Below are positions 5,607 to 48,879 of a stretch of 64,000 nt of DNA, piece after piece. Position 1 is the first letter of the stretch; every line of letters starts with the position of its first letter. The notes beneath the pieces are model-generated. The model saw nothing but the letters and a program-made list of their open reading frames with translations. It made no database searches and had not been told where the DNA came from. The DNA comes from Sphagnum compactum. Its lineage: Eukaryota. The position numbers and the translations under genes are program-made. The DNA is taken from positions 12,514,213 through 12,578,212 of the forward strand of contig OZ234493.1 in NCBI GenBank assembly GCA_965153455.1, in the 5' to 3' direction.

Positions 5607-7811
5607 CTATCGTGCCTTGACTACTCCAACCTCAGCAGGCCGAATTACTCGATCATGAAGCTTGTAGCCCACCTGGAACCCATCATCATAGCAGCAGATT
5701 TTAAATATAGCAAACCCCATCAGGATAACGCACAGAAAAAAAATAATCCATCTGATTTTGACCCACTTGAACCTAAACAAGAGCTGAACCTTACAGCTTT
5801 TGGAGTTACAATGGGCCTCTTGTTGCATGTCTACCGATTGGGCCATTATTGTTTGAACAGTGGAAACAGCTAAGCTGGACAGGTAGAAAAGCCAACCTTC
5901 AAAACAACAGCAACAGTGCCTGGTGGTTTTGATGGATCTTCCACTTCAAATACGGCAGAATGCAGGTTTGGGTCAAATGCCTCCCCAAGAGATTCAAATC
6001 TTTCTAACCCATTCGCTTTGAATACCTGTGGGTTCAACCCTTGTCAGCAAAACTATTCTCACAGCCAATCAATAACCATGACACAAGATGCCCATGCTTC
6101 CTTATGAAGTAAAACATCCAGCATGATGTTCAGCAACCAATGCACTATGCCAAATTGCCCTAAAAGGTGCCTATGTATTATAATCATTCATCCTGCACAA
6201 AGTTTCCAAATAAACCACAGGACATAGATACATCACCTAGCTATGAGAAGAATTATAAGGGTGGCCTCTGACTATGTCCCTCACCTTGACTTGCAGAGCA
6301 TTCCTTCACACAACTATCCCTGGCTCTTCCTCAAATGTTGAGGAGAATCCTGGATAGATGTGCAAAGGACTTCAGATGTATTACTGTATACTGCAGTGAC
6401 AGACAGCCTAGTCTACAAATCAGAAGGGTTGATTCTGTACAAAAAATAGGATTTCATGATTATACCAGGCTGAAAGTTTGAGGGAAAAAAAATTCTCTAT
6501 GTGGTGAAGGGTTGTAAAGCATAGACCTGGATGAGTTGCTTTTCTGTCATTTCCACCCCCAGAAGCAATGAGATGAGAATCTTTGCAGCACCAGAGGGCT
6601 CTTCTCCTGAACCATCTGACTTGCGGAACTCTTCAGGCACCGCTGCTGCTGCTCGACCCAAATTATCAGCAACATCAAGCAACCCTTTTGCAAAATTCTG
6701 CACCAAGCAAACAGCTCATCTTGATTAGCCTCAATCAAGCACTCAATCCTGGTGGTATATATCTGCCTTACTGAAGGATCTTGGAACCTGCTGTTCTTGA
6801 CATGAAGATGGTCCTGATTTACAGATCATAGATTGTTTGCAAACAAGCTCTAGTCACTTTATAGGAACAGAGAAGAAAGAGCCTGGTAACATAGCCATAA
6901 AAACAAGCCAGTTTGGAGTCTGTATAAGCAGATAGAAAGAAAGATGAAAAGTAAACTACCTGGACAGCATACTTGCGGGAATTTTCAGCTTCACGCCGTC
7001 CTCTGTCTAGTATGTTCTGGACCTCTGCATAACTCCTCATTACTTTGTCCTTCAGATCTTCAATTGTCTTCTCTTTTTCTTCCAAGAGAGCCTCCCTCTC
7101 TCCCAGCAGTGCTAAGAGCTCTGCTTCACTCTCCTCAAGAGATTTTCCTCCAACCTCAATCTCTGGATTAACAGATTTGCCTCCTGCTGGAGAACTCTTG
7201 TCCTTGTCCTTCACACTAAATAGATCCTCCTCTCCTTTTTTCTCCTCATCACTGGCTGTCTCAACAGCTCCTTTGACAGGGTCCGATTTCTCTTCTGTTG
7301 TTGTCTCCTGACCTTGCTCTGATGCAGCAGCTGCCACTCCTGGGCTACCTGACTTGCTCGAAAGATTTGGAGATGCAGCTGAAGAGAGGAAACTATGTGT
7401 GACAAATCCTGCCCATGATGACACCTGCGGCAACCCATGCCGAAGATTGGAGGAACCTGCTGCCACCCATCTCTGCAAAACACTGAAGTTAGAATTTTCC
7501 CAATGTTTTCAGAATCCATTTTCATTGCAGCTTCTTCTTCACCAGATAAAACTGTGGAAGCAGCATGACGTCAACACATAAAGTTACAGGGCAGCCTTTG
7601 AGTTTCCAACTCCCCAAACTTCTTAAGGTACCTTGAGAAGAGGGGACAAGAAATTTGAATCACTTGGCTGCTTCTTCTTCCACAGATGTGATGTCGATGT
7701 GTGACTTTGAACAGACATTAATGGTGGAGCTTGATAATATTGTATTGGTGAAGAAGAAGGCCTTCGGAATGCTTGAAGCAGTGATCGTGCATGCTTCACG
7801 TTGTTGCTCAT
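5607..7811 (-). CDS. GrpE: GrpE nucleotide exchange factor, mitochondrial type (5 coding exons)
   Basis: Exons 7811-7632, 7472-6960, 6697-6527, 6025-5897, 5672-5607, all GT-AG and phase 0. Motifs RSYAEVQNILDRGRREAENSRKYAVQNFAKGLLDVADNL, FDPNLHSAVF, GYKLHDRVIRPAEVGV. Ser/Arg-rich N-terminus suggests a transit peptide. Confidence 0.95.
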
Positions 7812-9145: not shown

Positions 9146-10046
9146 AACAAGAATTTGTACAAGCCTTAACCACTGTTATCAGTTATTGGTCATTTATGTT
9201 CATTCAGAAAAAAACCTACATCCATTCAATAATTAATTAAATTTAATCAATTAATTCAAAAACCATTAGTAACTGAAAACTAAATGAAAAAATGAAAAAA
9301 TTGAACTTAAAATATTTAGAAATAAATAAGAGGAGACAAAATTGATTTTTTATGCTTCCTACATTCCACACAGATCATTACTAATTAATTTCCAAAAATC
9401 TCTTACCTAGTTTATTTCCTTGTTCAATCTTTTGCTTTAGTTCCAATAATGTGGTTTTGTCAAGTAATATAAAAATTGTTCCCCATATTAAGAATGATGT
9501 AATCTTTTGGTGTAATTGTAATCTAAAATTAAATAAATAATAAAAACAATGTAAATATATTATAGTACTTTTACTATAATACTATAACCCTAAACCCTAA
9601 ACCCTTCAATGTATTTTATACCTCTATTAGTTCTACATATCATTTTTCAAGTACCCAATCTATGCATCATTCAGTCTTTTAAATCAAGGTTGGAAATTTT
9701 TGATTGGTTTTTTACATGGTTGTTACAAGTTGCGTTTCCGAATGTGGCAAGAGTGAGAGAGAGAGCCAACAGCCATCAGCAGCACACCATCGATCAGAAG
9801 CCTCTCATCATTCGGTTGGGGTTTGTTGATGAACCCGCAATTGAGTTCAAATCAGGTTACATAAGGAACTGGTTCTCAATGGGAAAAGTGTTTCCTGTGT
9901 CCACCCACCCAGCAATGCAACATAAACCCTCACACCAAGAACAGATTAAACACATCCAATTCATTCTGCCAAATTTTCATGGAACTGTTTCCACAGACAG
10001 AGGAAGACAGAAAAGTGGCAGAGGGTTTTAAAAATTACATACACAC

Positions 10047-10434
10047 CAGCCAAATGCACAACACACGCAGTCTGGTGGGCTGGCGTGTGGCGAGGACTGA
10101 GCATCCGCACCCGGGCGGTGTGGCTCTCACAAGGCAAAACTTCCCGAAGCATTGCATCACAGGGGGTGAGGAATGTGCCCTCTCGGAGACAGGCATTTCT
10201 GGACTCCCACAAAGTCTTCCAAGCTGGTCGGATGCTGGGAGGGGGCCAATGCTGGGAGGAGACCTGGACCAGACCCTGTGAGATGTTCTGCCGGATTAGC
10301 TGCTCCAGCAGCTCCAACTGAGGCCCCCCCCACCCCTTAGAGAAGAAGGGTGGTGCCAGTCTCAACCGGTGCATGAGAGCACCATACACGTGGTCTAGCC
10401 AGTAATGTGCAAAACCTAGATTGACCGTCACCAT
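10047..10434 (-). pseudogene. ABHD18: Orphan first coding exon of an ABHD18 / DUF2048-like alpha/beta hydrolase
   Basis: MVTVNLGFAHYWLDHVYGALMHRLRLAPPFFSKGWGG...CVVHLAG matches the N-terminus of plant ABHD18 homologues as I recall it. A GT donor follows at 10046, but no downstream exon (expected TGDH..., GxSMGG) is visible before GrpE. Confidence 0.75.
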
Positions 10435-10871
10435 CTGTGGAGATGGGTACCTCCAAAATGATGAAATCTCAACTACCACGCTTTTCCTAAACCTTCAACA
10501 CCAAATGTAAAGCCTTGTAATCCACTGTCAACCTTAACAACATCTTTGAAAGATGGCTTCTCCAAATAAGAAAAATCTCAAAAACTACTCCCTTTGCAAA
10601 ACCTTCTTAACACAAAAACACCAAACCTCAAAGCTTCTATTGCATTACTTGCTGTTAAGGCATTATCCCAAGGAATGTCAATCTTGAAAGCTCTCGCTCT
10701 TGATAACCCCGGTTGAAACATCGACCTTGCAGCAGCGGCAGCAGCTCCATTTGCGTGACACTCTATTCTCTCTTACACCGTTCTTGAATCGTGCGCCATA
10801 GATTACGTCTCCGCGGACATCCTGAAAAAAAATCCGACCCTGCAAAGAAACCGCATAGCTATCTATGGCAC

Positions 10872-11024
10872 TTTCAATCACCCAAATGTAGAGAAATCCC
10901 CAAAGACACAGACATGGGTCAACACCAAAAATGGTGCAAAACTGTGTTTCAATCCCCGAAATGGAGAGAAATCCCTAAAGACACAGAGAGATGGGTCAAA
11001 ACCAAAAAATGGTGCACAACTGTG
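10872..11024. repeat. Tandem duplication of ~76 bp upstream of the ABHD18 exon
   Basis: TTTCAATC.CC.AAATG.AGAGAAATCCC.AAAGACACAGA...TGGGTCAA.ACCAAAAA(A)TGGTGCA.AACTGTG occurs twice head-to-tail. Confidence 0.8.
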
Positions 11025-12104
11025 AACAAGAAGACGAAGAAAAATATATCCACTTAGGCCACAAACGGATGTGCATTGATCTTAACAAGAAGTACCCACA
11101 CAAGGGAAGAGTGGGATATAAGCTGATCATCATCAGATGAACAAACACGTTTGTCTTCTATCAATCTTCACCTAACCTAGTCATGGCAGTGGATGAGAAT
11201 GATGAACAATCAATCACTGCTCCTTGCTGCTTTCGTCACTTCAGCGCTGCCTAGTCATCAGCTGGATTGACTGCAGGGCCAGAGTGAATCAGCACCCAAC
11301 CAGCATAGCATTAAGGATGAATGATTAATGGTCAGGAAAACAGTTTTCTGTTGGGCCGCAGTTCACTAGCTAACCATGGTAGTTAGCTCAGTTGCTTTTT
11401 TCTTTTTCTTTTTACTACCTACCAGTAGGGATTTTTCTTTAAATTTCTTGTTTTCATTTGTGATGTCGCCATACTTGGTATTATCCACCAGAGGAATTAG
11501 CCAAATTTGGCTATAGGTCATAAATCAAAGTAGAAAACTTTGAAAATCCTGCTATATTTTGGCAACCTGATGGAAGAACCTATTGTCTAAATATGACAAT
11601 AGCTATTTAGAATAGAGATCCACCTCCTCACAAAATTTCACCAAAAAAAAAAGGGTGCTACCTACCTACTAATAATCACCCTACATACTAACAACATGGA
11701 GGTTGTTAGTAGGTAGGTAGTAAGGTAGGTTGTATGGGCTGGAGTGAACCAGCAGCCACCAATGCACCAGTTGAGGATGAGCCCGTTGGAGCCATTTTGG
11801 GGATGAACCAAAAACCCATCCTCCCTGCTCGTATGTATTGTTTTTTCCCGCCTCTCATCTGCCCCAGAATTTTCCCCTCCTACCTACCTCCCCCCTCCTA
11901 CCTCCCACCTCCTACCTCTCACTCCATCGCCAGAGCTCGGGAGTCGTCGATCGAGAGCGCGAGGGGAGGCTGGAGAGCGAGAGCATGAGGGGAGGCTGGA
12001 GAGCAGGAGGGGAGGCTGGAGTTGGAACTCGGAGCACCTGAAGTGGGACCCAGAGCTGGAAAGGTAAGCTCCCTTTTTTTTTCCTTTTTTTTTGTTCCAG
12101 CGTA

Positions 12105-13690
12105 GTGAAGAAGGCGACAGCTGCCGTCGCCTTCTTTTTTCGTTTTGTTGCAATGCAGAAAGCGATGGCAGCAATGCTTGTTTTGTTTTCTTGTGACGCA
12201 ACAAAGAAGGCGACGGCAGTCTGTCGTCCCCTTCTTCTTTTTTCTTCTTTTCTTCTAGCTTAGCGAAGAAGGCGACGGCAGCATTGATGCCGTCGCCTTC
12301 TTGTTATTTTGTTATAACACAGTGGAGAAGGCAATGGTAGCTTTGCTGCCATCGCCTTCTCTTTTTTTTTTGCAGTGCAACAAAGAAGGCGAATGTAGCA
12401 ACGCTGTCGCTTTCTTTTTTTTGTTGCAGTGCAGCAAAGAAGGCGAATGTAGCAACGCTGCCGTCGCCTTCTTGTTTTCGTTTTGTTGCAATGCAACAAA
12501 GAAGGCGACGATATCATTTTGTTGCAACGCCACAAAGAAGGCGATGGCATCGTTTTGTTGCAGCGCAACATAGAAGGCGCCGTCGCCTTCTTGTTTTTGT
12601 TTTGTTTAACTGCAACAAAGAAGGTGACGGTAGTCTGTCGTCTCCTTCTTTTTTTTTTTCTTTTCTTCTAGCTTAGCGAAGAAGGCAACGACAGCGTTGC
12701 TGCCGTCGCCTTTTTTTTCTTTTACTATGCAATAAAGAAGGCAATGGCAGCAACCCTGCCGTCACCTTCTTGTTTTTGTTTTGTTGCAGCACAACAAAGA
12801 AGGTGACGGCAACGTTCCTGCCGTCACCTTCTTGTTTTTGTTTTGGTGCAGCACAACAAAGAAGGCGACGGCAGCATTGCTATCGTCGCCCTCTTTTTTT
12901 TTCTTCTTTTGTTCCAGCGTAGCGAAGAAGGCGACGGTAGCGTTGCTGCGACGCTGCTATCGCCTTCTTTTTCGTTTTGCTGCAACGCGTTGCTGCCATC
13001 GTCTTTTTTTTTTTTTTTCTTCCAACGTAGCGAAGAAGGTGACGACATCGTTGCTGCCATCGCCTTTTTTTTTTTTTCCTTTTCTTCCAACGTAGCGAAG
13101 AAGGCGATGGCAATGTTGCTGCCGTCGCCTTCTTTTTTCGTTTTGCTGCAACGCAAAAGGTGATGGCAGCGTTGCTGCCATCGCCTTCTTTTTTCTTCCA
13201 ACGTAACAAAGAAGGCGACGGCAGCATTGCTATCGTCACCTTCTTCTTTTTAATTTGTTGGAGCGCATTGAAGAGGGCGACGACAGCAACTACTGTTGCC
13301 TTCTTTTTTCTTTGTGTTGTAGCAAAGCAAAGAAGGTGACAGCAGCCCAGCGTAGAAGGCTGTCGTCGCCTTCTTGTTTTTGTTTTGTTGTAGCGCAGTG
13401 AAGAATGAGACGGCAGCGTTGCTGCCGTCGCCTTCTTTTTTACCTTTTGTTGCAGAGCAGCCTAGAAGGCGACTGCTGCTTTGTTGCCTTTTTTTTTTAA
13501 AGGTGCACTGTGTAACACTTTTTGCACACCTTCAACCTATTCTTATGTGGTTTCATTGTATTGAAGAAGAAGACGACAGCTTCCGTCACCTTCTTCGATG
13601 GCTTTGCTATAAGGAAATGGCGACCTCCGCCTTTTCTTGGTGGTTTTGTTGCGAAGAAGGTGACGGCAACAATGTCGTCACCTTCTTCTA
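12105..13690. repeat. Array of ~25-28 imperfect palindromic units, consensus AAGAAGGCGACGGCAGC(A/G)TTGCTGCCGTCGCCTTCTT, separated by T-rich linkers (~60 bp period)
   Basis: Examples: ~12265 GAAGAAGGCGACGGCAGCATTGATGCCGTCGCCTTCTT; ~13097 GAAGAAGGCGATGGCAATGTTGCTGCCGTCGCCTTCTT; some half units. Confidence 0.92.
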
Positions 13691-13796
13691 TGGTGACGGT
13701 TTCATTTTAGTTTTTTTGTTGGTGCTTATGGTTTAGTTTATTAAAATTGACAATTAACAATGAAATGGTGGTTTTTTGTTTAGGGTTGAAGGTGTA

Positions 13797-15282
13797 ATGG
13801 CTAGGGGAAGGAGATTGAAGAAAAGTGGTGGTGGTGAGTTGAAAATGCATAAGCAAAATGTTGCTGCGTCAGATGAAAGAATTGTTGAGCCAAATGTTGC
13901 TGCAACAGAGGAGGCAATTGCCGAACCAAATGTTGTTGCATCAGATGCGACAATTGCCGAGCAAAATGTTGTTGCATCAGATGTGGTAATTGCTCAGCAA
14001 AATGTTGCTACATCAGATGAGGCAATTGGTAACGAAAATGTTATTGCATCAAATGAACCAATCGGTGAACAAAATGGTGCTCAATCATAATTGAGACATA
14101 AGGATGACAGTTTGTAATATAGATTGTTCTAGAATTTATGGACATTAGATTTAATACATATTAAAGAAATTGTACAAGTTTTATGAAGTTTAATTATATC
14201 CGCACCTTCCATCATCTGTTGGAAGGTGCGGGATTTTTTTTGTCAATTTTTTTTATTGCAATACTTGAAAACAGTTAATGTTTACAGGAGTAATATGTGA
14301 TTGTGTGATTTTATGTTTTGTAATACCTACATTCTATTTTTTGAACTCTCATTTTTTGGTTAGGTCTGAAACTTGAAACTGACCAGGCTTTTTAGCCACC
14401 GGCACCCCCTTGTCCACCTAATTTGGCTCGGAAGGACAAAGAATGGACGAGAGTTGGGTCGAAATGGAAGTGCAAAGTTGGCACTTGCATTGTCGCATAT
14501 TGTGCCAAATGGTTGTTAACCAAGCATTTAAAGGAGGTGCATGACTTGGTGGCAGAAAATGCCCAACCTGGGAGGCCTTCAACTTCTGCAGGAGGTCCTC
14601 GACATCAAGACCATGCCAAAATGAATGCTCGCATCTTGGGAAATGCCATGGCTATGCAAAGGCAGAATGATCAAAAGGTTACTAGTCGCACTCGTGCCAA
14701 AGCACAACGCGAGTGGAATAACCTAGTAGTTGTTGCAAAACAGTGTCCACCATTCCCAAAACCTGCTTTGGTCAAATTAGCTTCAGAGCAATTATTGAAG
14801 GTGTTGGGCCTCAATGCCTAGGGCGTGGAGTGTGCCTCGAGATGCAACATCACGAATGGAGAAGGATGAAAATTTACAAGGGATGATTCGATCCACCCGT
14901 TGTGTATATGCACGACAATTGAAGATGGCATGGGATGTGAAAAATTGGGATCGAGAGTCCAGTAAAACAAGTCGGACAAAACAGTTGGCAGATGTTTTGG
15001 ATTTTCATGAATCTAGAATGATTCATGGAAGGTAAGAAACAATAATAATCAATGTTGATTGTTTTTTATTGTATTTCATCCAAGGTGTGTTAAGGTTTAA
15101 TTTGGTGGTTTTTAGGTGTTTATAGGGTTCAGGACAAAACAAAGGAAAAGTTTGTTGCAAATGCAGTTCAGGTTGAGATGCAACGCCACCATTTTTACAC
15201 TTATCGTCATGCAGCAAAGGCTGTAAATGCAACAACTGCATACCGAGTTAAACACGGGATTGTAAATACTGATATGGGTTAG
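13797..15282 (+). pseudogene. Degenerate multi-exon gene inside the element: 12-aa repeat segment (QNVVASDEAIAE-like x6), C2H2 zinc finger, helical C-terminal region
   Basis: ORF 13797-14090 with 36-bp repeats. Segment ~14364-15030 has WKCKVGTCIVAYCAKWLLTKHLKEVH (C-x4-C-x12-H-x4-H), an in-frame TAG at 14393 and a frame break near 14818. A GT-AG intron ~15032-15125 leads to an open last exon VQDKTKEKFVANAV...DMG*. Confidence 0.6.
14200..14240 (+). other. Perfect 12-bp stem hairpin followed by a T run
   Basis: CCGCACCTTCCA-TCATCTGT-TGGAAGGTGCGG then GATTTTTTTT, GC-rich within very AT-rich context. Confidence 0.8.
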
Positions 15283-15744
15283 GGTTTCACTTTATATAAT
15301 TAGTTAGGATTTTTAGCCCATTATTTTTTGGACTACTCAATTTTTGAACTTCGATCCTTTGATATGTTATAGAGAACCAACGGTTTTTTTTCATTGGGTT
15401 CTTTAGTAATTTTTTATGCACCCATTTTTGTGCATCTTTTATCAATATAATAATATCTTCTATTCACACTTGTTTGATGGGTATATGGTTAATCATATAT
15501 GTCTTCTTTATAATAATTTTCTTAGTACTTGAAATGTAAAAATCAAACCTTAAATAGGCCCATATGAATAGGTAACATTAATTTGTTTAGGGTCTACAAA
15601 GATCAAAATGAACATTGTGTAATATTTTCATCTAATATAATAGGACTCACATCACCTGAAGACTTTTAAAACAATACACACATTTTAAACATATAATACT
15701 TACATCATTTTCTATTATAAATTCCATAAGGCCATTTGCAAATA

Positions 15745-16156
15745 TGCAATACCCGCATATAAGTCCTAAAATAGCCGCAAGCATTTTGCATTCATTACAA
15801 TACCCGCATATAAATCCCATAATAGCCGCTGGCATTTTGCATTCATTGCAATACCTGTATATAAGTCCCATAATAGTCGTTGGCATTTTGCATTCCTTGC
15901 AATACTCGCATATGGGCCACAAATAGTCGTTGGCATTCTACATTCGTTGCAATACCCACATATGGGTCCCATAATAGTCGCTGGCATTTTTCATTCGTGG
16001 TAATACCCGCATATGGGCCCGATAGTAGACCCTGTCATTTTACAGTTGTTGCAATACCCGCATATAGGTTCCATATTAACTGCTGGTTTTTTACATCGCT
16101 TGCAATACCCGCATATAGGTCCCATAATAGTTGCTGGTTTTTTACATTCATTGCAA
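15745..16156. repeat. 51-bp minisatellite, ~8 copies
   Basis: Unit ~TGCAATACCCGCATATRRGTCCCATAATAGYCGCTGGCATTTTRCATTCRT; yields spurious 17-aa periodic ORFs on both strands. Confidence 0.92.
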
Positions 16157-16254
16157 AACTTACATTTTGTCATAAAATTAATTCAGAATAACAATTAATT
16201 TAGGTATATAAAAAGACATATTTTGGGTACCTAGACCACTTATTAATTATTTTG

Positions 16255-16560
16255 AAATGACGTTACATGCGGGTATTGCATTTAGGGTTTAAGGTCTTCA
16301 CATAAGGTTTACCTCAACCACCTATGGATTATTTCAGTATGAACTTGCATGTAGGTATTGCATCTAGGCTTTGGTCTTCATTCAAAGGTGCACCCAAACT
16401 ACATATTGGGTATTTCAAAGTGACTTTACATGTGGGTATTACATTTAAGGTTGCCCTTTCATTATAAGTTTTACCTTATTCACGTATGGGTTATTTTGAA
16501 ATGAACTTGAATATGGCTATTGCATTTAGGGTTAAGGTTTCATATAATTTTGCAATATCC
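16255..16560. repeat. Degenerate ~80-bp minisatellite, ~4 copies (related to the 17948-18460 array)
   Basis: Repeated ...CATGYRGGTATTGCATTTAGGG...GGTCTTCA... units. Confidence 0.7.
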
Positions 16561-16768
16561 ACACACGTACTTACTTTCACCATTTATAAATTTAGCCTTA
16601 ATTTTTTTAATAATTAAGTATAATTTGTAACAAAACACAAAAGAAGGTATGTCTCTTACCATTTTTTAATCTCCAAGCTGATCTCTTTCAATTTCTTTAA
16701 AAATGTGTATTGCATTGCTTTGCATATAAAATTCCCCCTATAATGCATCGTAGATTTATTTTATTATA

Positions 16769-16772
<4 letters not shown>

Positions 16773-16811
<39 letters not shown>
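16773..16811. repeat. (TA)n microsatellite
   Basis: About 19 TA units. Confidence 0.95.
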
Positions 16812-16813
<2 letters not shown>

Positions 16814-17947
16814 CTATAAATAAATATGAAAATATTATATGTATTGAAATGGATCAACAATATAATTCCATAATATCATTATTTATATATTATTTGTTAT
16901 AAATAACAATATATTTGGACCAATATTTAAACCAATATTATACACCATAAAAAATAAAGTTTACATAAGGACTTGTGTTATATATGTATAAAATATAAAA
17001 TATTTTTGACTCATTACATGATTATTTTAACCAATAACTTAATTACTATATATCAGAAAAATATAAAATAAATTTCAATCAAACATAGGAATATGTGGGA
17101 GAGATCATTTTTATTATTATGTGAAACAGAAAACAAAAGTAGAAAATTGTGTGCTTTGAGTTTTTTTTAAACATAGTCTAAAATCTTATTAAATTAGAGA
17201 CTTTATATTTATGTTTTTTGAAATGAGTATACAACTTTAAAAGGGGGAAAAAATAATATGAACATCTTTGAAGAAATTTTAAGCTTGAACTTTTTTCTTT
17301 TTGATCTCAACAAACTTTGTATTACATTCAGGTTGGGTTTTCACATAAGGTTTGCTTCTTACCTTTGTGTGATAACTCCAACCTAATTTTCCCAATATCT
17401 TTGAAGAAGATATAGAATGAGATTGTATTGTTTCACATATGTCTAAACCCTAAAAATTCCCCCCCAATTTAATATAAAATATTTCTGATAATTAATGAAT
17501 TATCAAAAAAAATTGTCATGTAATTAAAATTAATAGACCATTATTTCAGATAATTTAAATGATTAATTATGAAGAATTAGATAATCATTTATTTATTTAA
17601 AGTAATTAACTAATCATTTGGTTTAACTTTATTTACTTGGATAATAAAAAGTTGGATCTAAAATCAGATTGAATAATTTGATATTTGATTGATTAACTTA
17701 AGTATATTTTTATTTTAATAAGTTATTGAAATCACTATTTAAGATAATTATTCCATGTTATAGATTGCAAGTTCAGCTTTTTCATGAAAAATTCCTACAC
17801 CAAGATAAACTTGATCACAATTGTCATTGTATTATTTGTTCCACAAATAATACAACAAAGTAAGAATCATGGAACTCTTAATCAACAACCCCAACCTCTA
17901 TACACACCTTTGTTAGCATATGATTTTGAAATTAACTAATTATTTTA

Positions 17948-18460
17948 GAGTGACCCAAAATGTAGGTATTGCATTTAGGATAGGACTTCATATAAAGAGG
18001 CTTAAACCCCACATGCGTACTTTCGGAGTGACCCAAAATGCAGGTATTACATTTAGGGTAGGATCTTCATATAAAGAAAGGTTTAAACCCTACATGCGTA
18101 CTTTCGAAATGACCCAAAATGCAAGTATTGCACTTAGGGTAGGATCTTCATATAAAGAGGATTAAACCCCACATGCGTACTTTCGGAGTGACCCAAAATG
18201 CAGGTATTGCATTTAGGGTAGGATCTTCATATAAAGAAAGGTTTAAACCCTACATGCGTACTTTCGGAATGACCCAAAATGCAGGTATTGCACTTAGGGT
18301 AGGATCTTCATATAAAGAGGCTTAAACCCCACATGCGTACTTTCGGAGTGACCCAAAATGCAGGTATTGCATTTAGGGTAGGATCTTCATATAAAGAGGC
18401 TTAAACCCCACATGCGTATTTTCGGAGTGACCCAAATTGCAGGTATTGCATTTAGGGTTG
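17948..18460. repeat. 79/81-bp minisatellite, ~6.5 well-conserved copies
   Basis: Unit GAGTGACCCAAAATGCAGGTATTGCATTTAGGGTAGGATCTTCATATAAAGAGGCTTAAACCCCACATGCGTACTTTCG with an 81-bp variant (GAAAGGTTTAAACCCTAC). Confidence 0.95.
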
Positions 18461-19466
18461 GGTTATTTCAAAGTGACTTTGCATGTGCATATTGTGTTTA
18501 GGGTTAGGTCTTCACTTAAAGGTATCCAAACCATTTAGTTGGGTTTTTTTGAAATGTGGGTATTGCATTTAGGCTTGTTTTTTCATTTCAACTTGTAATA
18601 CCTAGACTTATACTTACGTCGACCAATTGGAATTTTGGGGTTTCATTGCAATACTTACACCCGTATTTACTTTTAGCAACTGGAATTTTGGGGCATAATT
18701 GCAATACTTGCACTTGTACTTACTTTTACCAACTTGGATTTTGGGGCCTAGTTATAATACCTGCATTTAACACTAATATTATCATTATCCTTGTGTTTTT
18801 GCATTTCACACTTTTTGTGCTTATTACTTGGAAACAATAATAACCTTTGTGCCATAGTAGACTTCATGTGTGTGTTGAATCCATGATGTTCAAAGAATTT
18901 GGGCTATGGTTTCCTCCATACAAAATTGATTCTAAAACAAAATTCTTAATGCCAATGGCAACAATCTTGATTAGTAATCGAGACATTTATTAGGGTAAAA
19001 TATTAGTTCTGAAATATATGAACCAAATTCCTATACACTAAAGCATAAAGCATAACCCTACAAATCCAAATGATATTTTGCCATAAGCCTTATTACAACC
19101 CTAACTATACAAACCATAACAAAAAACAAATAGTGATATATGCCCTAAACCCAAAAAACTATACAAACTATACAAATTATATAATGCAAAATAAACAAAT
19201 TTAAAAGAACATAGGAAAAAAATTAGAAACCAAAATTCAAAGGTTTTAAACTATAAATATTTATTAACTGAAAGAAAATACGTTAATCTTTAAAAATAAT
19301 CAAATAAATTTTGTACAAAACCAAAAGAAAAGATATGTCTTTTACTTTTGTGTGATCTTTCCAACCTAATTTTTCCACTTTTTTTGAAAAAGATATAAAA
19401 TGCAATTGTAATACTTCACATATGTGTAAACCCTAAAATTTCCCCCCCAAATTAAGCCTATTTTAT

Positions 19467-20117
19467 CAGCGAGGAATTAATGCACGAAGATGCCATTCCT
19501 TGTGGGCGCATGACGCGTATCTTTTCCACTGTTGCTGGTGTAGGTGGAGTGTTCCTCTCGTGACCCTTGTGCTCGATCCACTACCGTTGGTTTCGAACTT
19601 TGCATTGTGATTGCATTTTGCAGAATTGCTTCCAGCGGTATTGAAGTTAGCTATACCAACCTTGCTTGCGCTGGTGATTACAATTCCAGCAGACTTGAGT
19701 ACTGTGAATTGTCTATGATTCCAAAGAATGTTTTGGAAACCTTCTTCAGCTTCTGTTGCAGTTTGACTCTAGTCCTTAGAGAATGTGGATTATAGTACAA
19801 TTGTTGTATGTGAATTCTTGTGGATTTCTTCATGCACTGGTTGTTCAGAGTTTCTGATTTGGCTGTGCATGTGTTCAGGGCCTCGAATCACATGGCCAAG
19901 AGTCTTTAGGTGGCAGATATGCGGGGCTGTAGGTGCAGCTGCTGCCATGGCCACATTCGCTCGGCTATGGGAACCTACATGTGAGCCTCAAAACATAGCT
20001 GCATATGATTCTTAGCCTATCTAAGCCCCCACTTTCTGCCCCATTGATTATCCATTATCTCAGTAGCCCCTTGATGATGTATCCAGTGCCCGAACACTCT
20101 CCATCTCCTAACCTGGA
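19467..20117 (+). pseudogene. 5'-truncated inverted duplicate of the 94-aa gene at 21940-22517
   Basis: 651 bp, reverse complement of 21838-22488 with ~14 substitutions counted by eye. Lacks the ATG and first ~10 codons; TGG>TGA stop at 19561-19563; intron retained. Confidence 0.93.
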
Positions 20118-20334
20118 TTTTAAAAAAAACTCCCTATAGCCAACCGGTTAACCAATGATTATCAATCGGGTGATTGAAACCCTACTCTTATGCATAATTG
20201 ATGGTTATTATCAAACCAATTTTGATACCCTAATAAAAGCATTCAATATTTTCTTGATATTGATAACCTGATTGACTCAACCACACACTATTTTGCTTGA
20301 GCTGGTAGGTGAACTTTCCCAAGAAGGGAAAGTG

Positions 20335-20480
20335 CTATGATAGGGCCACAGTGAACCAACACCCACCAGCTCGCACCATACTCAGTTGTGGATGAACCTC
20401 AACTGAGTTGAACATTTGGTTTCATCTTGGTAACAAATTCTGTAAGAAATAGGTCCCATAAATAGGCAGACAGGTAGTTG
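20335..20480 (+). repeat. Dispersed repeat family B
   Basis: GGGCCACAGTGAACCAACACCCACCA...AGTTGTGGATGAAC...AACATTTGGTTTCA.CTTGGTAAC; similar sequence at ~48130-48280, shorter matches at ~11275-11330 and ~11733-11800. Confidence 0.65.
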
Positions 20481-21939
20481 TCAGATTGGCTATGTATCAA
20501 CTTTCACCCCTTATGGACCTCTCAATAGCTCGGCCCCAGGGGTTATTAACAAAATCAAAATACCCACACAACACTGATGAATGCAATCATGGGTAGTCGC
20601 TACCTCTTAGGATTGTTGCATAATTTAGATTGTAAGTTCAATCATGTTGTAATTGATCCAGCTCTCGCTCCATGATCTTGCAACAACAGGCCACTTGAAG
20701 GAGAGGCACCCAAGCACTTGGGTTATCATCAAAGGACTTGTTTTGGCACTGGTACGAATGTTAATATAACTTCGATCAGTATGCTCCATGTTGGGTGGGT
20801 ACCAGGCAGGAGGAGCCCTGCTATATATATAGACTGATACTGGTCCTCATATCAAAGAACTCACCAGACTGGTATGACTTGATCCAATACTGACCACATA
20901 CCAATACCTGCCTGGTAGGGAAATGAGGTCATACCAGCCTCTTAGCATGTTCAGAGAGTGCCATTCCTGTGTTTTTGATTCCGGAATCCTGAAGTGGTTT
21001 GAAATTATTCTGGCATCTGAGCTAGAATCGTATGGCTGCTGGAGGTACAAAGCTGGAAGCATGTCAGGCAAAGATCTGAGCTTGAACATTGTATGCAGTT
21101 CAAGTCAGATCTTTGCTTGAATTTACAGAATCAGGTGTCCATGGTATTGTGATCAGTATTGCAAATTCTGGCAGCTCCAGGAACTTGATCAAGAATACCA
21201 ATACATCTACAATACATAATGCTTCTAGCTGTGTAACCCAGAATCACATGCTCTAAAGGCCAGGAATACAACTATACCATACTATGTCTCTATGTGATTG
21301 TCCAGAGAAATTTCCACCACAACACTTTGAGGATACAATGAGAAATGAGTACAGTCATCACCTTGTGAAAGTTGCTCACAAATTGTCAGACCATCACCTT
21401 CATCACAAATAGCAGTGAAAAGATACCATGACTACCCTGTGACTTCATCAACTCCCAACAGTCACGAATGTTGATGTCAGTACATGACAACCAGCCTAAA
21501 ATTCAGGTAAATACATCCTGCACAATCTGCATCCTGACTTTCTGTCACATTTCCAGAACCAACAGGAGACTCAGTCATGACTCATGATGTTGGCTAGCAA
21601 TCAAGACACATAACTAATAAAAAATAGGTCAATAGTATCCTGATGCAAGCTGCAACAAGTTTGTGAGTTTAAGCTTCATTTCATTTTAATTTTTCAATGC
21701 CAGGAGCATAGCCATAGTTGTAGTTCCAATGTCATTCTATCAGCAATACTTTCTTAGCCAGTGTGGTGTTTGCTATGAAAATTTCTTAATTGTTACACTT
21801 ATACCAAAGACCACTGCTGGCTTTAAACCCTAACAAGTCCAGGTTAGGAGATGGAGAGTGTTCGAGCACTGGATACATCATCAAGGGGCTACTGAGATAA
21901 TGGATAATCAATGGGGCAGAAAGTGGGGGCTTAGATAGG

Positions 21940-22517
21940 CTAAGAATCATATGCAGCTATGTTTTGAGGCTCACATGTAGGTTCCCATAGCCGAGCGAAT
22001 GTGGCCATGGCAGCAGCTGCACCTACAGCCCCGCATATCTGCCACCTGAAGACTCTTGGCCATGTGATTCGAGGCCCTGAACACATGCACAGCCAAATCA
22101 GAAACTCTGAACAACCAGTGCATGAAGAAATCCACAAGAATTCACATACAACAATTGTACTATAATCCACATTCTCTAAGGACTAGAGTCAAACTGCAAC
22201 AGAAGCTGATGAAGGTTTCCAAAACATTATTTGAAATCATAGACAATTCACAGTACTCAAGTCTGCTGGAATTGTAATCATCAGCGCAAGCAAGGCTGGT
22301 ATAGCTAACTTCAATACCGCCGGAAGCAATTCTGCAAAATGCAATCACAATGCAAAGTTCGAAACCAACCGTAGTGGATCGAGCACAAGGGCCACGAGAG
22401 GAACACTCCACCTACACCAGCAACAGTGGAAGAGATACGCGTCATGCGCCCACAAGGAATGGCATCTTCGCGCATCAATTCCCCGCTGGATGCTCCTAGT
22501 GCCTGTCGCAGGGCCAT
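21940..22517 (-). CDS. Small conserved plant protein of unknown function, 94 aa, two exons (resembles Arabidopsis At1g05205 from memory)
   Basis: Exon 1 22517-22370, GT-AG phase-1 intron, exon 2 22076-21940: MALRQALGASSGELMREDAIPCGRMTRISSTVAGVGGVFLSWPLCSIHYGPRITWPRVFRWQICGAVGAAAAMATFARLWEPTCEPQNIAAYDS*. HYGPRIT.PR..RW..CGAV and CEPQNIAAYD are motifs I recall from that family. Confidence 0.88.
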
Positions 22518-22554
22518 CGCCAACTAGCTCTTGCACTCCACACAAGGAAATACG

Positions 22555-22690
22555 CAGCAGGATTAGGGTTTTGGACATCAGGACATTTGAGTTCTTCACG
22601 AAGAGAGCAGGATTAGGGTTTTGGATTTCAGGACATTTGAGTTCACACAGAGAGCAGGATTAGGGTTTCGGGTTTCAGGACATTTCAGTT
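22555..22690 (-). promoter_or_regulatory. ~50-bp tandem repeat (~2.7 copies), each with a telo-box, in the leader/promoter of the 94-aa gene
   Basis: GCAGGATTAGGGTTT...TCAGGACATTT occurs three times (AAACCCTAAT on the coding strand). Confidence 0.65.
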
Positions 22691-22741
22691 CGAATGGGTT
22701 CAATTATGACCATGTCTTCATACCGAAAAAGGGCCATAATA

Positions 22742-23110
22742 GAGTTATCTGTAAAGTCACCCTGTCTTTGGGCCTGCTTTCACCCCCTATCCCCTCTTTC
22801 AGTGGTATTGCAAAGTAATGAAATTTTATTAAATCTCAGTACGAAACACAGCATTTAATGCACAAGGTTCGAGAGTAATTATAGAAGTTGTACAGGTAGG
22901 AGCAGTCAAAACATATGTAGCAGCAGTGGAGGCCCTGCAATAAACAAAAGTCAGGATGAAACTCAGTTTACCACCAAAATTGACGGAAAAACTAGTTTGG
23001 GTCCCAGTTATTTTGCTTTGTATAATTCTCATTCCAGATACATGTTTGTGCTCTATTATGCCAAAACTAATCGTTCTCGCCCCCTAATTGCAAGACTTTA
23101 CAGATAACTC
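22742..23110. mobile_element. MITE, 369 bp, 17-bp perfect TIR, TA flanks (Tc1/mariner-Stowaway-like)
   Basis: GAGTTATCTGTAAAGTC (22742-22758) and GACTTTACAGATAACTC (23094-23110), each flanked by TA. A diverged inverted copy lies at ~55790-56205. Confidence 0.8.
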
Positions 23111-31963: not shown

Positions 31964-32510
31964 CTAGTGTGAACCCGGTGCATAATGCACCCGTCGAGCT
32001 CCCCCCTCGCTCGATCCTTCCCATTGCTCAGTCCGGTTCTTTATCCCGTCAACCGCCCCCCTCCTTCGCATTTTCCACTCCGATTTTTTAACTCGTTGAT
32101 CCCCCCCCCCCCGTTCCCCTGTTATATATTAACTTCTCACCCCGTGTTGGCCCCCCCCCCTTGCCCGTGAAGAAAAAACACACTTGTTAGGTGCCCACCC
32201 CTTTTTGAGACAGAAAGTCTAATGAGGGTAAGGAAGGCACCCAATGCACCCTCCAAAATACACTTCACATAAGCATATGGTACCTCAAGCTCTACCATGG
32301 GTAAGGTCCAGGAGTCTGGGGGAGCCCCAAAATGCAGGGCCGGATTTCAATACCTACTGGCTCGTGCCCGTGCTGGCCCCCTCCGCCCGTGCTAGCCCCC
32401 CCTTTGCTGGTCCCCCCCCGCCTCGTCACTCGCTGCTTCACCAGGCATCTCCCTTCCCCACCCCCCAAAACCTCCGTCACAGACACAGAGAAGATAAGAT
32501 ATTAAGATAA
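31964..32510 (-). mobile_element. Helitron-type 3' terminus (5' end not located)
   Basis: Minus strand reads GGTGCA-TTA-TGCACC hairpin, 9 nt, then CTAG followed by T, at an abrupt GC/AT boundary. This is the canonical Helitron 3' signature. Confidence 0.65.
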
Positions 32511-33877
32511 GGTGGCTTAAATATGTTTGTATTTAAAAAATTAAACGATAATAGGGTGAAAAATAGGTTGGACAATTATCTAATACCCCCCAAAAGATAC
32601 CTTGTTTGACACTTAAAATTCGACACTATTGATGTGGTTACACTTGTTTTTAAAAAAATATAATATAATGTAAACAATTAAAAATGATGTTGAATTGTGA
32701 ATGGTTTTCACAATGTGTTAAATGTATGCATGACTTGGAACTAGCCAATTTTTTTTTTAAATTTATAAATGATATACAACCTTTCAACTAAACTATAATA
32801 AATCGTTTTCCTACCACTTGGGCTCACAATTCAAAACCAAAAGAAAAGAACAACAAAATCATTAAATTATTGACATAACACCGAATTTTCAATGGTCCTT
32901 GATTCACAATCCAACCTTGTGTGTGTATGCACGTGCATGTGTGTTTGCTTGTGCATGTGCATATATGTTAGATATTTTCATTTGAGCCATAAATTCAATT
33001 TTATTTATTATTTTGGGTCACGTGTATAAAATATTTAGTTAGATTTTATTTTTTTGTTTTATTTTTGAATTCCAAATTAATTTTTTTGTGCCAAAATTTT
33101 GCCACTTAGCAACAAAAATAAAAAGGCTGAAATATGACTTGTAAAAAGGATTTTTTTGAGGAAAAAATCTCCCAAAGTTGCCATATTAGAAGGGGGAAAA
33201 AGTTAAAATCACAATATTTTATACCATAAGTTTTTGCATGTCACTAATACATATAATACATAGAAGGGTTTCAATTTTTTTTTTACTTTTCTTTTAGAAA
33301 TGTAGCCAAATTTAGTTAAGTCTTCTTGTGGACAATCACCACCAATCCACCCACCTCACAAAATTGAAATAATAATAAAATCCCCTATTTCCAATTTCTC
33401 GTTTTGATCATACTTTTGTAAACATTTATTTATTTGATCCATGTAATTTGCTTCTATGAAGGTTTCAATTGTTATTTTATATTTTTTAGAATTCCTTTTC
33501 TATTATATTCTTGTTTTTCTTTCTAATCATTTTCATATGAACATTTTACTCACATTTTATTTGATATTCTAATTGCATTATCTATTTTTTTATCTTTTTT
33601 GGATGAAGGTTTTGATTGCAACATACACAGTCATATGTATTAAGGTTTAAGTCGCACCTTCTTTTTACCCTTTTTTTGGGGTTTTGTTTATAATGCTTAC
33701 ATTTATATCATCTATATAGTGCATTTGCATGTTATGTATCAAAATTATTTTAAAAAAAGGACATGTTCAACATTATGAAGATTATTTGATCATAAATGAA
33801 ATATGTATTATTACATTTAATATCACATTTTATGAATTCATAAACATGCATGACATGTCTAAATTGATCAACACATC

Positions 33878-33958
33878 AATTGTTGAGCAAAATGTTGTTG
33901 CATCAGATGCGATAATTGCTCATCAAAATGTTGTTGCATCAGATGAGACAATTGGTAT
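33878..33958 (+). repeat. Fragment of the 36-bp QNVVASD repeat also found at 13850-14075
   Basis: CAATTGTTGAGCAAAATGTTGTTGCATCAGATGCGATAATTGCTCATCAAAATGTTGTTGCATCAGATGAGACAATTGGTA. Confidence 0.85.
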
Positions 33959-34001
33959 TTCAACATAATTATTACATTTTTCCACTTGATTCCACCTATT
34001 C

Positions 34002-34225
34002 CTCAATAAATTATATCCATTTAAGTTTTCTTTCATTATTGTTTCTTCTACACACTCAATAAGATTATATCCATTTAAGTTTTCTTTCATTATTGTTTCT
34101 TCTACACACTCAATAAAATTATATCCATTTAAGTTTTCTTTCATTATTGTTTCCTCTACACACTCAATAAGATTATATCCATTTAAGTTTTCTTTCATTA
34201 TTGTTTCCTCTACACACTCAATAAG
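34002..34225. repeat. 54-bp minisatellite, ~4.1 near-identical copies
   Basis: CTCAATAARATTATATCCATTTAAGTTTTCTTTCATTATTGTTTCYTCTACACA starting at 34002, 34055, 34109, 34163, 34217. Confidence 0.95.

Positions 34226-35105: not shown

Positions 35106-35107
<2 letters not shown>

Positions 35108-35143
<36 letters not shown>
35108..35143 (+). repeat. Poly-G tract (36 G) in the 5' region of the WD40 gene
   Basis: Uninterrupted G run. Confidence 0.9.
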
Positions 35144-35144
<1 letters not shown>

Positions 35145-47990: not shown

Positions 47991-48879
47991 CATAAAACAA
48001 TATTTGGCAAAAAAAATTATTTTTTAAGCCTATTTTACAAGGTTATAAGCAACCAACCTTTTTAAAGGTAGGGATTTGGCTAAAATTTGCCAACAAAAGA
48101 AATATTGCTTGGGTGAGGCTTCCCATTTTATATAGCCAAAGTGAATTAACACCCACCAATGCATCATCCATTAGATGGCCCTTGTGATTTAGTTGTGGAT
48201 GAACTTTAATTAAGTTAACATTTGGTTTCACCTTGGTAACCCATTATGTAAGAAGTAGATCATACATATTGGTAGGAAAATTGGTGATTACTAAATAAGG
48301 AGATTGGATTATACATAGTAATAAAGTCTATTTTTACTAGTGTTGGCTAGATATTGACTTTTAGACCTACCTTATGGATATCAATAAAAATAAAATTTCA
48401 AGGAAACATATAATACATGTTTTATACATATATATTTTTGGAATGTATTTGTAAGGATATATATATATAATTTATTACACCAACAATTAATTACACATTC
48501 CTTTTTTGAAAATTTATTTTGTTAATTAATAATACATTGGTTTTCAATTTCAAAACATGACAATATGCACAAATGATATGCAATTATGTTGTTTACAAAA
48601 ACAACTTACAAGAATACAACCTAGTTTCCCAAAACAAAACTAACATGAAAAAATTACAAAACAAAATAACTTGTAAGGGAATCAAACCCCCATTTTATGA
48701 AAAACTATGCTTAATTGTAGTGCAAGTTCTTTGCCCCAACCACACCCCACATAAACCCTCCCTAGCCCCACAATATTAATCATTATCAACTTCTAACTTT
48801 CAAAAAAATTTTGTTCTTGTAATTCTCCTTTGCCAAAAATTCTTTCTTTTTCAAGTATTTTTTCAAGTCTAAAATTGGC

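Follow-up and report, generated by a model that had tools for sequence, protein, structure and literature searches.

The segment at 11737-19465 of a 64,000-nucleotide (nt) stretch of Sphagnum compactum DNA (assembly GCA_965153455.1, contig OZ234493.1, positions 12,514,213 to 12,578,212 of the forward strand; here called the window, with positions counted from its first letter) is probably one decayed, right-truncated copy of a mobile family that is dispersed in Sphagnum. The family has kept its modules in one order: a terminal leader, a palindromic array, a three-exon gene with a putative C2H2 zinc finger, and a macro-repeat built from motif arrays and T modules. One end of the family is sharply defined and inserted at many unrelated sites, and the family consists of tens to low hundreds of copies. 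Judged from protein sequences the family looks lineage-specific, with a Sphagnum balticum protein as its sole named relative. The window copy itself appears to be dead.

Copies of the element were found in moss-metagenome contigs of the Joint Genome Institute (JGI), which were fetched using exon 2, the main exon of the element gene. There were at least 600 pattern matches in these contigs, and 518 were confirmed by tblastn among the matches listed. The 80 loci that were kept represent 74 independent ones, because six pairs are one locus sampled twice. DNA reads were taken from run X21, a raw Hi-C library with the same species label, and placed at 85% likeness or more; RNA reads were from run X22 (polyA). 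X21 depth, with both mate orientations summed in each bin, is 53-290 reads per bin on 11.3-19.4 kb versus 0.3-4 on flanking bins free of other repeats, and over 11.3-19.46 kb it is 30-160 times that of the neighbouring genes. The palindromic array is shallower (19-29). The copy estimate is restricted to tens to low hundreds because the flanking baseline is thin and the library is Hi-C. Read depth and loci agree with the original prediction from the sequence, which proposed a copy of a multi-copy, lineage-specific mobile family.

The modules follow the same order from locus to locus. Across the 80 fetched loci the leader, the palindromic (hairpin) array, the gene, and the first two motif arrays are arranged in the same way. 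Only loci of sufficient length were counted for each module. The leader is found in 16 of 19, which indicates that there is little 5' truncation. The hairpin array precedes the gene in 39 of 47, exon 1 is present in 65 of 69, the exon3_4 module in all 62, array A in 24 of 29, and array B in 16 of 22. Collinearity with the window, at 84-90% identity, extends furthest in three independent loci: to 18.8 kb in L038, to 18.6 kb in L032, and to 19.26 kb in L068. The exceptions to the order are L066/L069, which have only a piece of the gene, L033, which is rearranged, L044, L077, and L073, which depart from the family early, and L058/L059, which are interrupted. Sub-families differ in a 447-nt block (16553-16999) that is missing from L019, L021, L046, and L032, and in about 720 nt after the first T module that are found in seven other copies and replaced in the window by (TA)n at 16773-16827.

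Most of the original description of the element holds, while its boundaries have moved. The modules that it listed (a leader, palindromic units, a decayed spliced gene with a 12-amino-acid (aa) repeat and a C2H2 finger, and four arrays with a shared core) all lie where it placed them, and they recur in the same order in the metagenome loci rather than as nested unrelated repeats, the alternative it had named. A GC hairpin that it placed after the gene is real; it is found at 14200-14231, in the intron between exons 1 and 2. The left boundary given as 11730 is corrected to 11737 by the junction alignment. The right boundary given as 19455 is not the end of the element, since reads run past 19465 and 19455-19465 is a truncation point.

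The left end of the family is sharp. It was defined with 21 aligned junction sequences from 20 independent loci, the window copy included, and it falls at window position 11737, beginning GGCTGGAGTGAACC. The flanks are unrelated at all 20 independent junctions; the sequences are dissimilar upstream of GGCTGGAGTGAACCAGCAGCCACC and conserved downstream of it, and column identity climbs from 0.35 in the flanking sequence to 0.96 across 11747-11766. The left terminus and leader occupy 11737-11960 on the + strand, and their first ~70 nt are the most conserved. The end is GGCTGG in 15 of the 21 sequences, with GCCTGG, GCCTAG, GGCTAG, and GATTGG in the others, and its reverse complement finishes in CCAGCC. 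At the last flank position, 13 sequences have G, six have C, two have A, and none has T. Loose ends of X21 reads number 306 before 11737 and 173 before 11742, with a low agreement of 0.36-0.49. Tandem Repeats Finder (TRF) detects C-rich leader repeats of 7/14-nt units at 11873-11918 and G-rich leader repeats of 20/26-nt units at 11952-12021, both on the + strand.

Some junctions have tandem duplications of the flank. These occur at three of the 20 independent junctions (L003 at 7609-7712, L043 at 2251-2336, and L061 at 17-122), and the duplicated flank is 50 nt plus GGCT, 39 nt plus GGCT, and 53 nt, respectively, so that the duplications terminate 0 or 4 nt (GGCT) inside the element. They have no firm explanation; the simplest reading, repeated breakage or nicking at the left end, is suggested by their position.

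Other repeats are found near the left end or resemble it. Three elements of about 100-125 nt in the window (11277-11401, 20344-20465, and 48134-48262) match the family left end in their first ~25 nt (GGCYNNAGTGAAYYARCANCCAMC) and in a GGATGA box, and from this likeness they may be small non-autonomous relatives that share the family's machinery. Immediately left of the element lies a 298-nt insertion at 11402-11699, with the ends CTACCTACC.../...GGTAGGTAG. Position 11401 is joined directly to 11700 in contigs of two other species and in some reads. The insertion is a high-copy repeat like a miniature inverted-repeat transposable element, and a related repeat also adjoins the left end in L038/L051.

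The gene on the + strand has three coding exons and would encode 368 aa if intact, according to a model built from the sequence and from intact copies. Exon 1 (13797-14076) encodes a basic N-terminus and an acidic 12-aa tandem repeat. The underlying 36-nt repeat has 6.4 units at 13852-14081 (TRF, period 36), and its length varies from 2.5 to 14.2 units across 38 loci with a matching period-36 array. Exon 2 (14364-15031), identified by translation and by its relatives, encodes the predicted C2H2 finger, with the pattern C-x4-C-x12-H-x4-H at 14471-14542, and a helical region. Exon 3 with the stop codon (15126-15282) was placed from the sequence and by-eye comparison with L068. Compared with an intact copy, exon 2 of the window carries TAG in place of CAA at 14393 and of TGG at 14819, and it has lost 2 nt near 14828; exon 2 is fully open in four of the 80 loci (L004, L008, L031, and L072). 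Where the window differs from X21 reads (9500-23000), C>T is seen at 359 places and G>A at 360, with 63-250 places for the other types. Such an excess is what deamination of methylated cytosines should leave behind in silenced repeats, and it agrees with copies that have many stop codons and few indels.

Pieces of the gene also occur outside complete copies. The locus L066 (9566-11206, the same locus as L069) has just 873 nt of it, corresponding to window 14346-15213 at 89.6% identity. Direct repeats of 384 nt flank the piece, which lies in a unique region close to a fructose-bisphosphate aldolase gene and looks like a gene fragment taken up by a different element. In the window itself, an isolated two-unit piece of the 36-nt repeat exon is found at 33877-33957; it is 80-90% identical, is followed by a GT donor, and adjoins a 60-nt tandem repeat at about 33990-34220.

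Copies of the gene are transcribed, and silent changes are mildly overrepresented in its coding sequence. X22 reads cover 14.46-15.36 kb at a depth of 8-10. Their first mates map to the - strand, as is usual for + strand RNA, and show that paralogous copies are transcribed on the gene strand. All of the RNA reads carry paralog-type differences, so other copies are expressed and not the window copy. The ratio of nonsynonymous to synonymous divergence (dN/dS) is 0.39 in 2145 pairs from 66 copies, versus 0.55 and 0.72 in shifted frames, and differences from the consensus number 1154, 959, and 1497 at the first, second, and third codon positions. From these sequence comparisons, selection on the protein is suggested but not proven.

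The protein has relatives only under unnamed entries and one S. balticum model. The exon-2 peptide has 168 relatives among representatives at 50% identity, and a profile search with exon 2 finds 1115 clusters at 90% identity, all of them unnamed apart from the S. balticum model. This closest named relative (P0153, 281 aa, "unnamed protein product") is 85% identical over the exon-2 query and likewise has an N-terminal repeat followed by the finger; it is an automatic gene model with no function assigned. A single-sequence query finds two proteins of 250-281 aa, and the profile search finds no form of 493-2000 aa, which is weak evidence that the protein stands alone and is not part of a longer or fused form. 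AlphaFold2 with a 44-sequence alignment gives a mean predicted local distance difference test (pLDDT) score of 70, with a beta-beta-alpha finger at about 94 that is followed by long helices. The histidines H55 and H60 are conserved in at least 90% of the 44 sequences. A homodimer prediction for the exon-2 protein that was run without an alignment scored 0.00 and is uninformative either way. Structure prediction, which the original prediction had recommended, yields a confident finger. Pfam has no family for the protein, and Foldseek matches are weak. Nothing in PDB is matched at E ≤0.001, and the top matches, which include C2H2 and other zinc-finger folds, have E >0.5. The best score in the ESM Atlas is 0.81, to zinc-finger clusters only, and is a lead at most.

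The palindromic array occupies 12108-13670 and is assigned to neither strand. By half-site count and repeat finder (D1 family, 24 units), it has about 20-24 units of the form AAGAAGGCGACGGCAGC nnn GCTGCCGTCGCCTTCTT. There are 43 half-sites matching AAGAAGGCGACGGCAGC with up to three mismatches, all of them within the array, while shuffled sequences give an expectation of 0. As single-stranded DNA, 12600-13300 folds at z = -20 versus 20 shuffles. An Rfam scan of 11-21 kb finds no family, only sub-threshold microRNA-like matches on the hairpin units. The array lies within a putative intron of the 5' untranslated region (UTR) at 12064-13783 on the + strand, read from the sequence as donor GGAAAG|GTAAGC and acceptor ttag|G; 13 of 21 leaders have a GTAAGC or GTAAAC donor located 289-380 nt inside the left end. 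The separate GC hairpin in intron 1 (14200-14231, assigned to neither strand) is followed by a T-run. Each of its 12 stem pairs is kept in 56-69 of 69 copies. This conservation is no higher than that of the surroundings, and the hairpin was rejected as a specially conserved signal.

Four motif arrays share one core, GGTATTGCA, which in longer context is GGTATTGCATTTAGGGT. Array A (15745-16156) has 8.1 units of 51 nt with the core on the - strand, array B (16228-16547) has four units of 81 nt with the core on the + strand, array C (17948-18458) has 6.4 units of 79 nt in a 160-nt higher order with the core on the + strand, and array D (18593-18765; 18606-18765 by TRF) has three units of 53 nt with the core on the - strand. 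The arrays were delimited by TRF and core counts, and for array D also by a repeat finder. The core orientation is thus -, +, +, - across arrays A-D. With up to one mismatch the core matches the window 48 times versus 18.5 expected window-wide, and 25 of the matches are in 15745-18708. The number of units changes quickly; the 51-nt array has 2.3-8.1 of them in different copies. Module T is found three times on the + strand, at 16600-16760 (T1, by repeat comparison), at 17347-17472, which is 82-84% identical to 19330-19455, and at 19330-19465, where the copy is truncated and reads continue. The arrays are nested in a larger repeat, since 16228-16700 resembles 17940-18640.

On the right side the window copy was cut off by a rearrangement. 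A 654-nt inverted duplication of the neighbouring gene pairs 19467-20120 with 22488-21835 at 97.7% identity, with DUF7875 exons in both arms. Its right-hand (- strand) copy has an RNA depth of 35-195, and the left arm is hardly covered. Because the arm begins two bases after 19465 and the reads of other copies run on, the window copy was truncated by the inverted-duplication rearrangement. In X21, 177 reads continue past 19465 with a common continuation (agreement 0.92). The window lacks this 30-nt continuation, and none of the 80 loci contains an exact match to its first 22 nt. A looser search with blastn-short finds it in L053/L056, where there are 118 nt of family sequence (L053 3363-3478) and then sequence unique to the locus. 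The 118-nt continuation resembles the block after T1 in other copies, so the 3' region is a macro-repeat. L068 departs from the family at window position 19260.

The surrounding window is plant-like and gene-rich by ORF (open reading frame) and domain scans. The - strand carries GrpE and ABHD18 exons at 5.6-10.5 kb. DUF7875 exons occupy 19.8-22.2 kb, and WD40 and kinase exons are found further along the window. Base composition is also uneven, with about 40 consecutive G at 35107-35144 and strong C-richness, including several runs of C, at 32000-32470. A tRNA scan finds no tRNA in 11-21 kb. The sole match in the window related to reverse transcriptase (RT) is a sub-threshold RT_RNaseH_2 at 45.7 kb, outside the element.

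The structure of the copies suggests how the family could spread. Introns are retained, and the copies examined have no RT except for one nested gypsy element, so the family would move as DNA. Short interspersed nuclear elements (SINEs) and LINE-dependent composite retroposons like SVA (SINE-VNTR-Alu) have a poly(A) or LINE tail, a variable target-site duplication (TSD), 5' truncation, and no introns; the moss family retains its introns in all copies, and its leader in 16 of 19 loci of sufficient length. The enzyme that moves the family would be supplied in trans or encoded in a part beyond the recovered sequence. The C2H2 protein would be a DNA-binding accessory factor encoded by the element, which could recognize GGTATTGCA-type arrays, the palindromic units, or both. 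It might mark copies for the mobilizing enzyme, like TnpA in En/Spm; alternatively it might protect them from silencing, like VANC in VANDAL elements.

The closest working analogy is VANC21 of VANDAL21 (Hiun), an Arabidopsis Mutator-like element (MULE) that lacks terminal inverted repeats (TIRs) (Hosaka et al. 2017, PMC5735166; Sasaki et al. 2023, PMC10398659). VANC21 binds a 9-nt motif packed in tandem repeats in VANDAL21 introns and upstream regions, and according to PMC5735166 tandem repeats occur in both the VANC proteins and their targets, VANC often having tandem peptide motifs. Similarly, the moss element has dense arrays of a short motif in its own introns and non-coding parts and a protein with tandem peptide repeats, whose DNA binding is predicted, and in both systems array units are quickly gained and lost between copies. 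VANC proteins have DUF1985 and DUF287 domains (PMC5735166). The moss protein contains just one putative C2H2 finger and matches no family in Pfam. VANDALs also encode the transposase VANA, and none was found in the moss family. Membership in the MULE or VANDAL groups, which have a 9-11-nt TSD, was rejected, with no MURA-type transposase, DUF1985, or DUF287 in nine family proteins (E up to 1) or in the ORF scans; since the domains differ, the resemblance is architectural only.

En/Spm and other elements with internal repeats offer further comparisons. TnpA of En/Spm, a CACTA element, binds clusters of a subterminal 12-nt motif that lie in both orientations inside the element. The moss family likewise has an element-encoded protein, with binding that is predicted, and repeated motifs in both orientations. 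In contrast to En/Spm, its left end is GGCTGG and not CACTA, its arrays extend over 3.7 kb rather than being restricted to the ends, and it has no TnpD-type transposase. Helitrons and CACTA elements can hold internal minisatellites and an accessory gene. The moss family shares these internal tandem arrays and the accessory gene, while its left-end sequence and insertion site differ. Helitrons and CACTA elements were the leads of the original prediction, and both fail the end-sequence tests that are possible at the left end. A CACTA element, which would also have a 3-nt TSD, was rejected because the terminus is not CACTA and no Transposase_21/24 match is found in window or long-locus ORFs. A Helitron, which has a 5' TC, a 3' CTRR near a hairpin, and an insertion site between A and T, was rejected because the left end is GGCTGG and not TC, the reverse complement does not finish in CTRR, and A is the last flank base in 2 of 21 sequences. 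No Rep or helicase (RepHel) match is found in the 150 window, 28 long-locus, and 53 downstream ORFs, and non-autonomous Helitron copies would lack RepHel anyway.

Several observations weigh against a mobile family with its own DNA-binding factor. Transposition is deduced from the dispersal of the copies and was not seen. No transposase, Rep, helicase, or integrase is found among 150 window ORFs of at least 78 aa (16 array-region ORFs excluded), and no mobility enzyme is found in 28 ORFs of long loci. The 53 ORFs from the divergent downstream parts of copies yield only RT, ribonuclease H (RNase H), and integrase, and these belong to a gypsy element that interrupts L058/L059. Longer copies with a mobility enzyme, which the original prediction suggested seeking, were not found in either of these two sets. 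Its statement that the window copy has no TIR, long terminal repeat (LTR), DDE, RT, or Rep signal is borne out, and it applies to the other copies as well, the gypsy pol of L058/L059 being nested. It also proposed aligning copies to define shared ends; the aligned copies define the left end, at 11737, and no recognizable right terminus is reached in any of the 80 loci. The distal modules are thinner by the strict length rule (mid in 5 of 11 loci, T2 in 3 of 10, and array C in 1 of 6). Pfam has no finger call in the window copy, and among the nine family proteins (E up to 1) zf-C2H2 is matched below the cut-off in just two distant relatives (E 0.006-0.012). The shifted-frame dN/dS controls are below 1 like the main frame. 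Introns and non-coding parts match the exons in conservation between copies (0.88-0.96), so most of the divergence appears to be neutral decay and the selection signal is modest. Finally, X22 depth over the leader is below 1, so the 5'UTR intron, read from its splice signals and the leader donors, is putative.

Relatives of rolling-circle elements are an unlikely explanation, though one to be taken seriously. On this account the family would be a non-autonomous HUH element, related to Replitrons or Helitrons and moved by a Rep encoded elsewhere, with the left end and the hairpins as enzyme sites. Replitrons are present in high copy in non-seed plants including mosses, and most families are without a TSD, according to Craig 2023 (PMC10288648), which also states that non-autonomous Replitrons have about 50 nt at either end in common with the autonomous element. 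The moss family resembles them in its conserved end with short relatives, its abundance in a non-seed plant, and the lack of a detected TIR. No inverted repeat is found between 10.5-12.1 kb and 19.0-19.7 kb, where there are only chance matches of 9-17 nt, and the two inverted left ends of L033 show no TSD. The conservation of the first ~70 nt and the recurrence of the terminus start in the three short window elements fit as well, and the end-anchored flank duplications fit nicking there. However, the element is far longer than Replitrons, it carries a C2H2 gene, and no Rep gene was seen, whereas Replitrons are marked by a Y1 Rep HUH endonuclease and short direct terminal repeats. No Rep or helicase is present in any copy scanned, with no Replitron Rep model known in the libraries searched. 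The left end starts GGCTGG and not TC, its reverse complement does not finish in CTRR, and neither the A|T site of Helitrons nor the TT site of Helentrons fits the flanks. Helentrons and HLE2 elements have short TIRs and insert between T and T (PMC11417382), and they were rejected since T is the last flank base in none of the 21 junction sequences. For the transposition machinery, Replitrons are the other lead that still stands.

A cut-and-paste derivative is doubtful. It would be MULE/VANDAL-like, hAT, or of another type, its transposase lost or never present and its right terminal repeat removed by truncation. The locus L033 (82-4504) has two left termini in inverted orientation around a leader, a hairpin array, a complete gene, and an inverted hairpin array, with no TSD outside, and it is either a head-to-head rearrangement or a long-TIR derivative. 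Inverted left ends (82 on the + strand, 4504 on the - strand) around a complete gene are as in a long-TIR derivative, the accessory protein and arrays give a VANDAL-type architecture, and the flank duplications at the end fit double-strand-break repair. Against this, the outer flanks of L033 share no 8-11-nt duplication, and the inverted terminus occurs in L033 only among the 80 fetched loci. The read depth of the leader equals that of the gene, about 165 each, and is not double. No MULE, hAT, PIF, or CACTA transposase domain is found in any ORF scan, and the protein lacks the VANC domains.

A new kind of plant mobile element is also improbable on the present evidence. The only protein of such an element would be a single-finger C2H2 factor that reads the element's own fast-changing arrays and palindromic units, an independent moss counterpart of VANC in anti-silencing or recruitment, and its transposition machinery would be undescribed. 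This machinery might nick at the GGCT end and so produce the flank duplications there.

It is very unlikely that the family is a very long LTR, mostly as solo LTRs, of a moss Ty3/gypsy retrotransposon with the gene inside the LTR. Many copies without an enzyme gene would fit solo LTRs, and in L058/L059 the sequence downstream of the family encodes gypsy protease, RT, RNase H, and integrase on the same strand. The Ty3/gypsy retrotransposon at L059 2950-11278 (the same locus as L058) has these domains in order and lies within module T. It is a nested insertion, since the family breaks inside module T and the new sequence has its own TGT... start and TATA box. The junction flanks have no common internal region or polypurine tract. 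An LTR or solo LTR was rejected as the identity of the unit, which starts GGCTGG and not TG, and no two flanks from different loci share internal sequence; the preceding two bases are TG in only 8 of 21 junction sequences. In addition, introns are retained, and no locus has two direct copies around gag-pol.

A chance nest of unrelated repeats is largely refuted, as is a host gene family dispersed along with a satellite through segmental duplication: the foreign 298-nt insertion just outside the element, the sub-family differences (the 16553-16999 block and the ~720 nt missing after T1), and tail bins that are ~1.6 times deeper than the gene bins would fit it, but the module order is constant in dozens of independent loci and the boundary is identical against unrelated flanks, where segmental duplicates would have ragged ends.

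The dispersed family has consequences for the annotation of moss genomes and for the study of self-recognition by mobile elements. Much of the world's soil carbon is stored by peat mosses, whose genomes are recent additions to repeat annotation. A family this large without an assignable superfamily risks being labelled an unknown repeat or annotated as hundreds of hypothetical genes; 1115 public protein clusters already carry the exon-2 profile. The sharp left end and the duplications anchored to it provide a handle for finding the family's mobilizing enzyme. If the protein binds its own arrays, this would be sequence-specific self-recognition encoded by a transposable element outside the flowering plants and with a different fold, a behaviour documented so far in Arabidopsis VANDALs.

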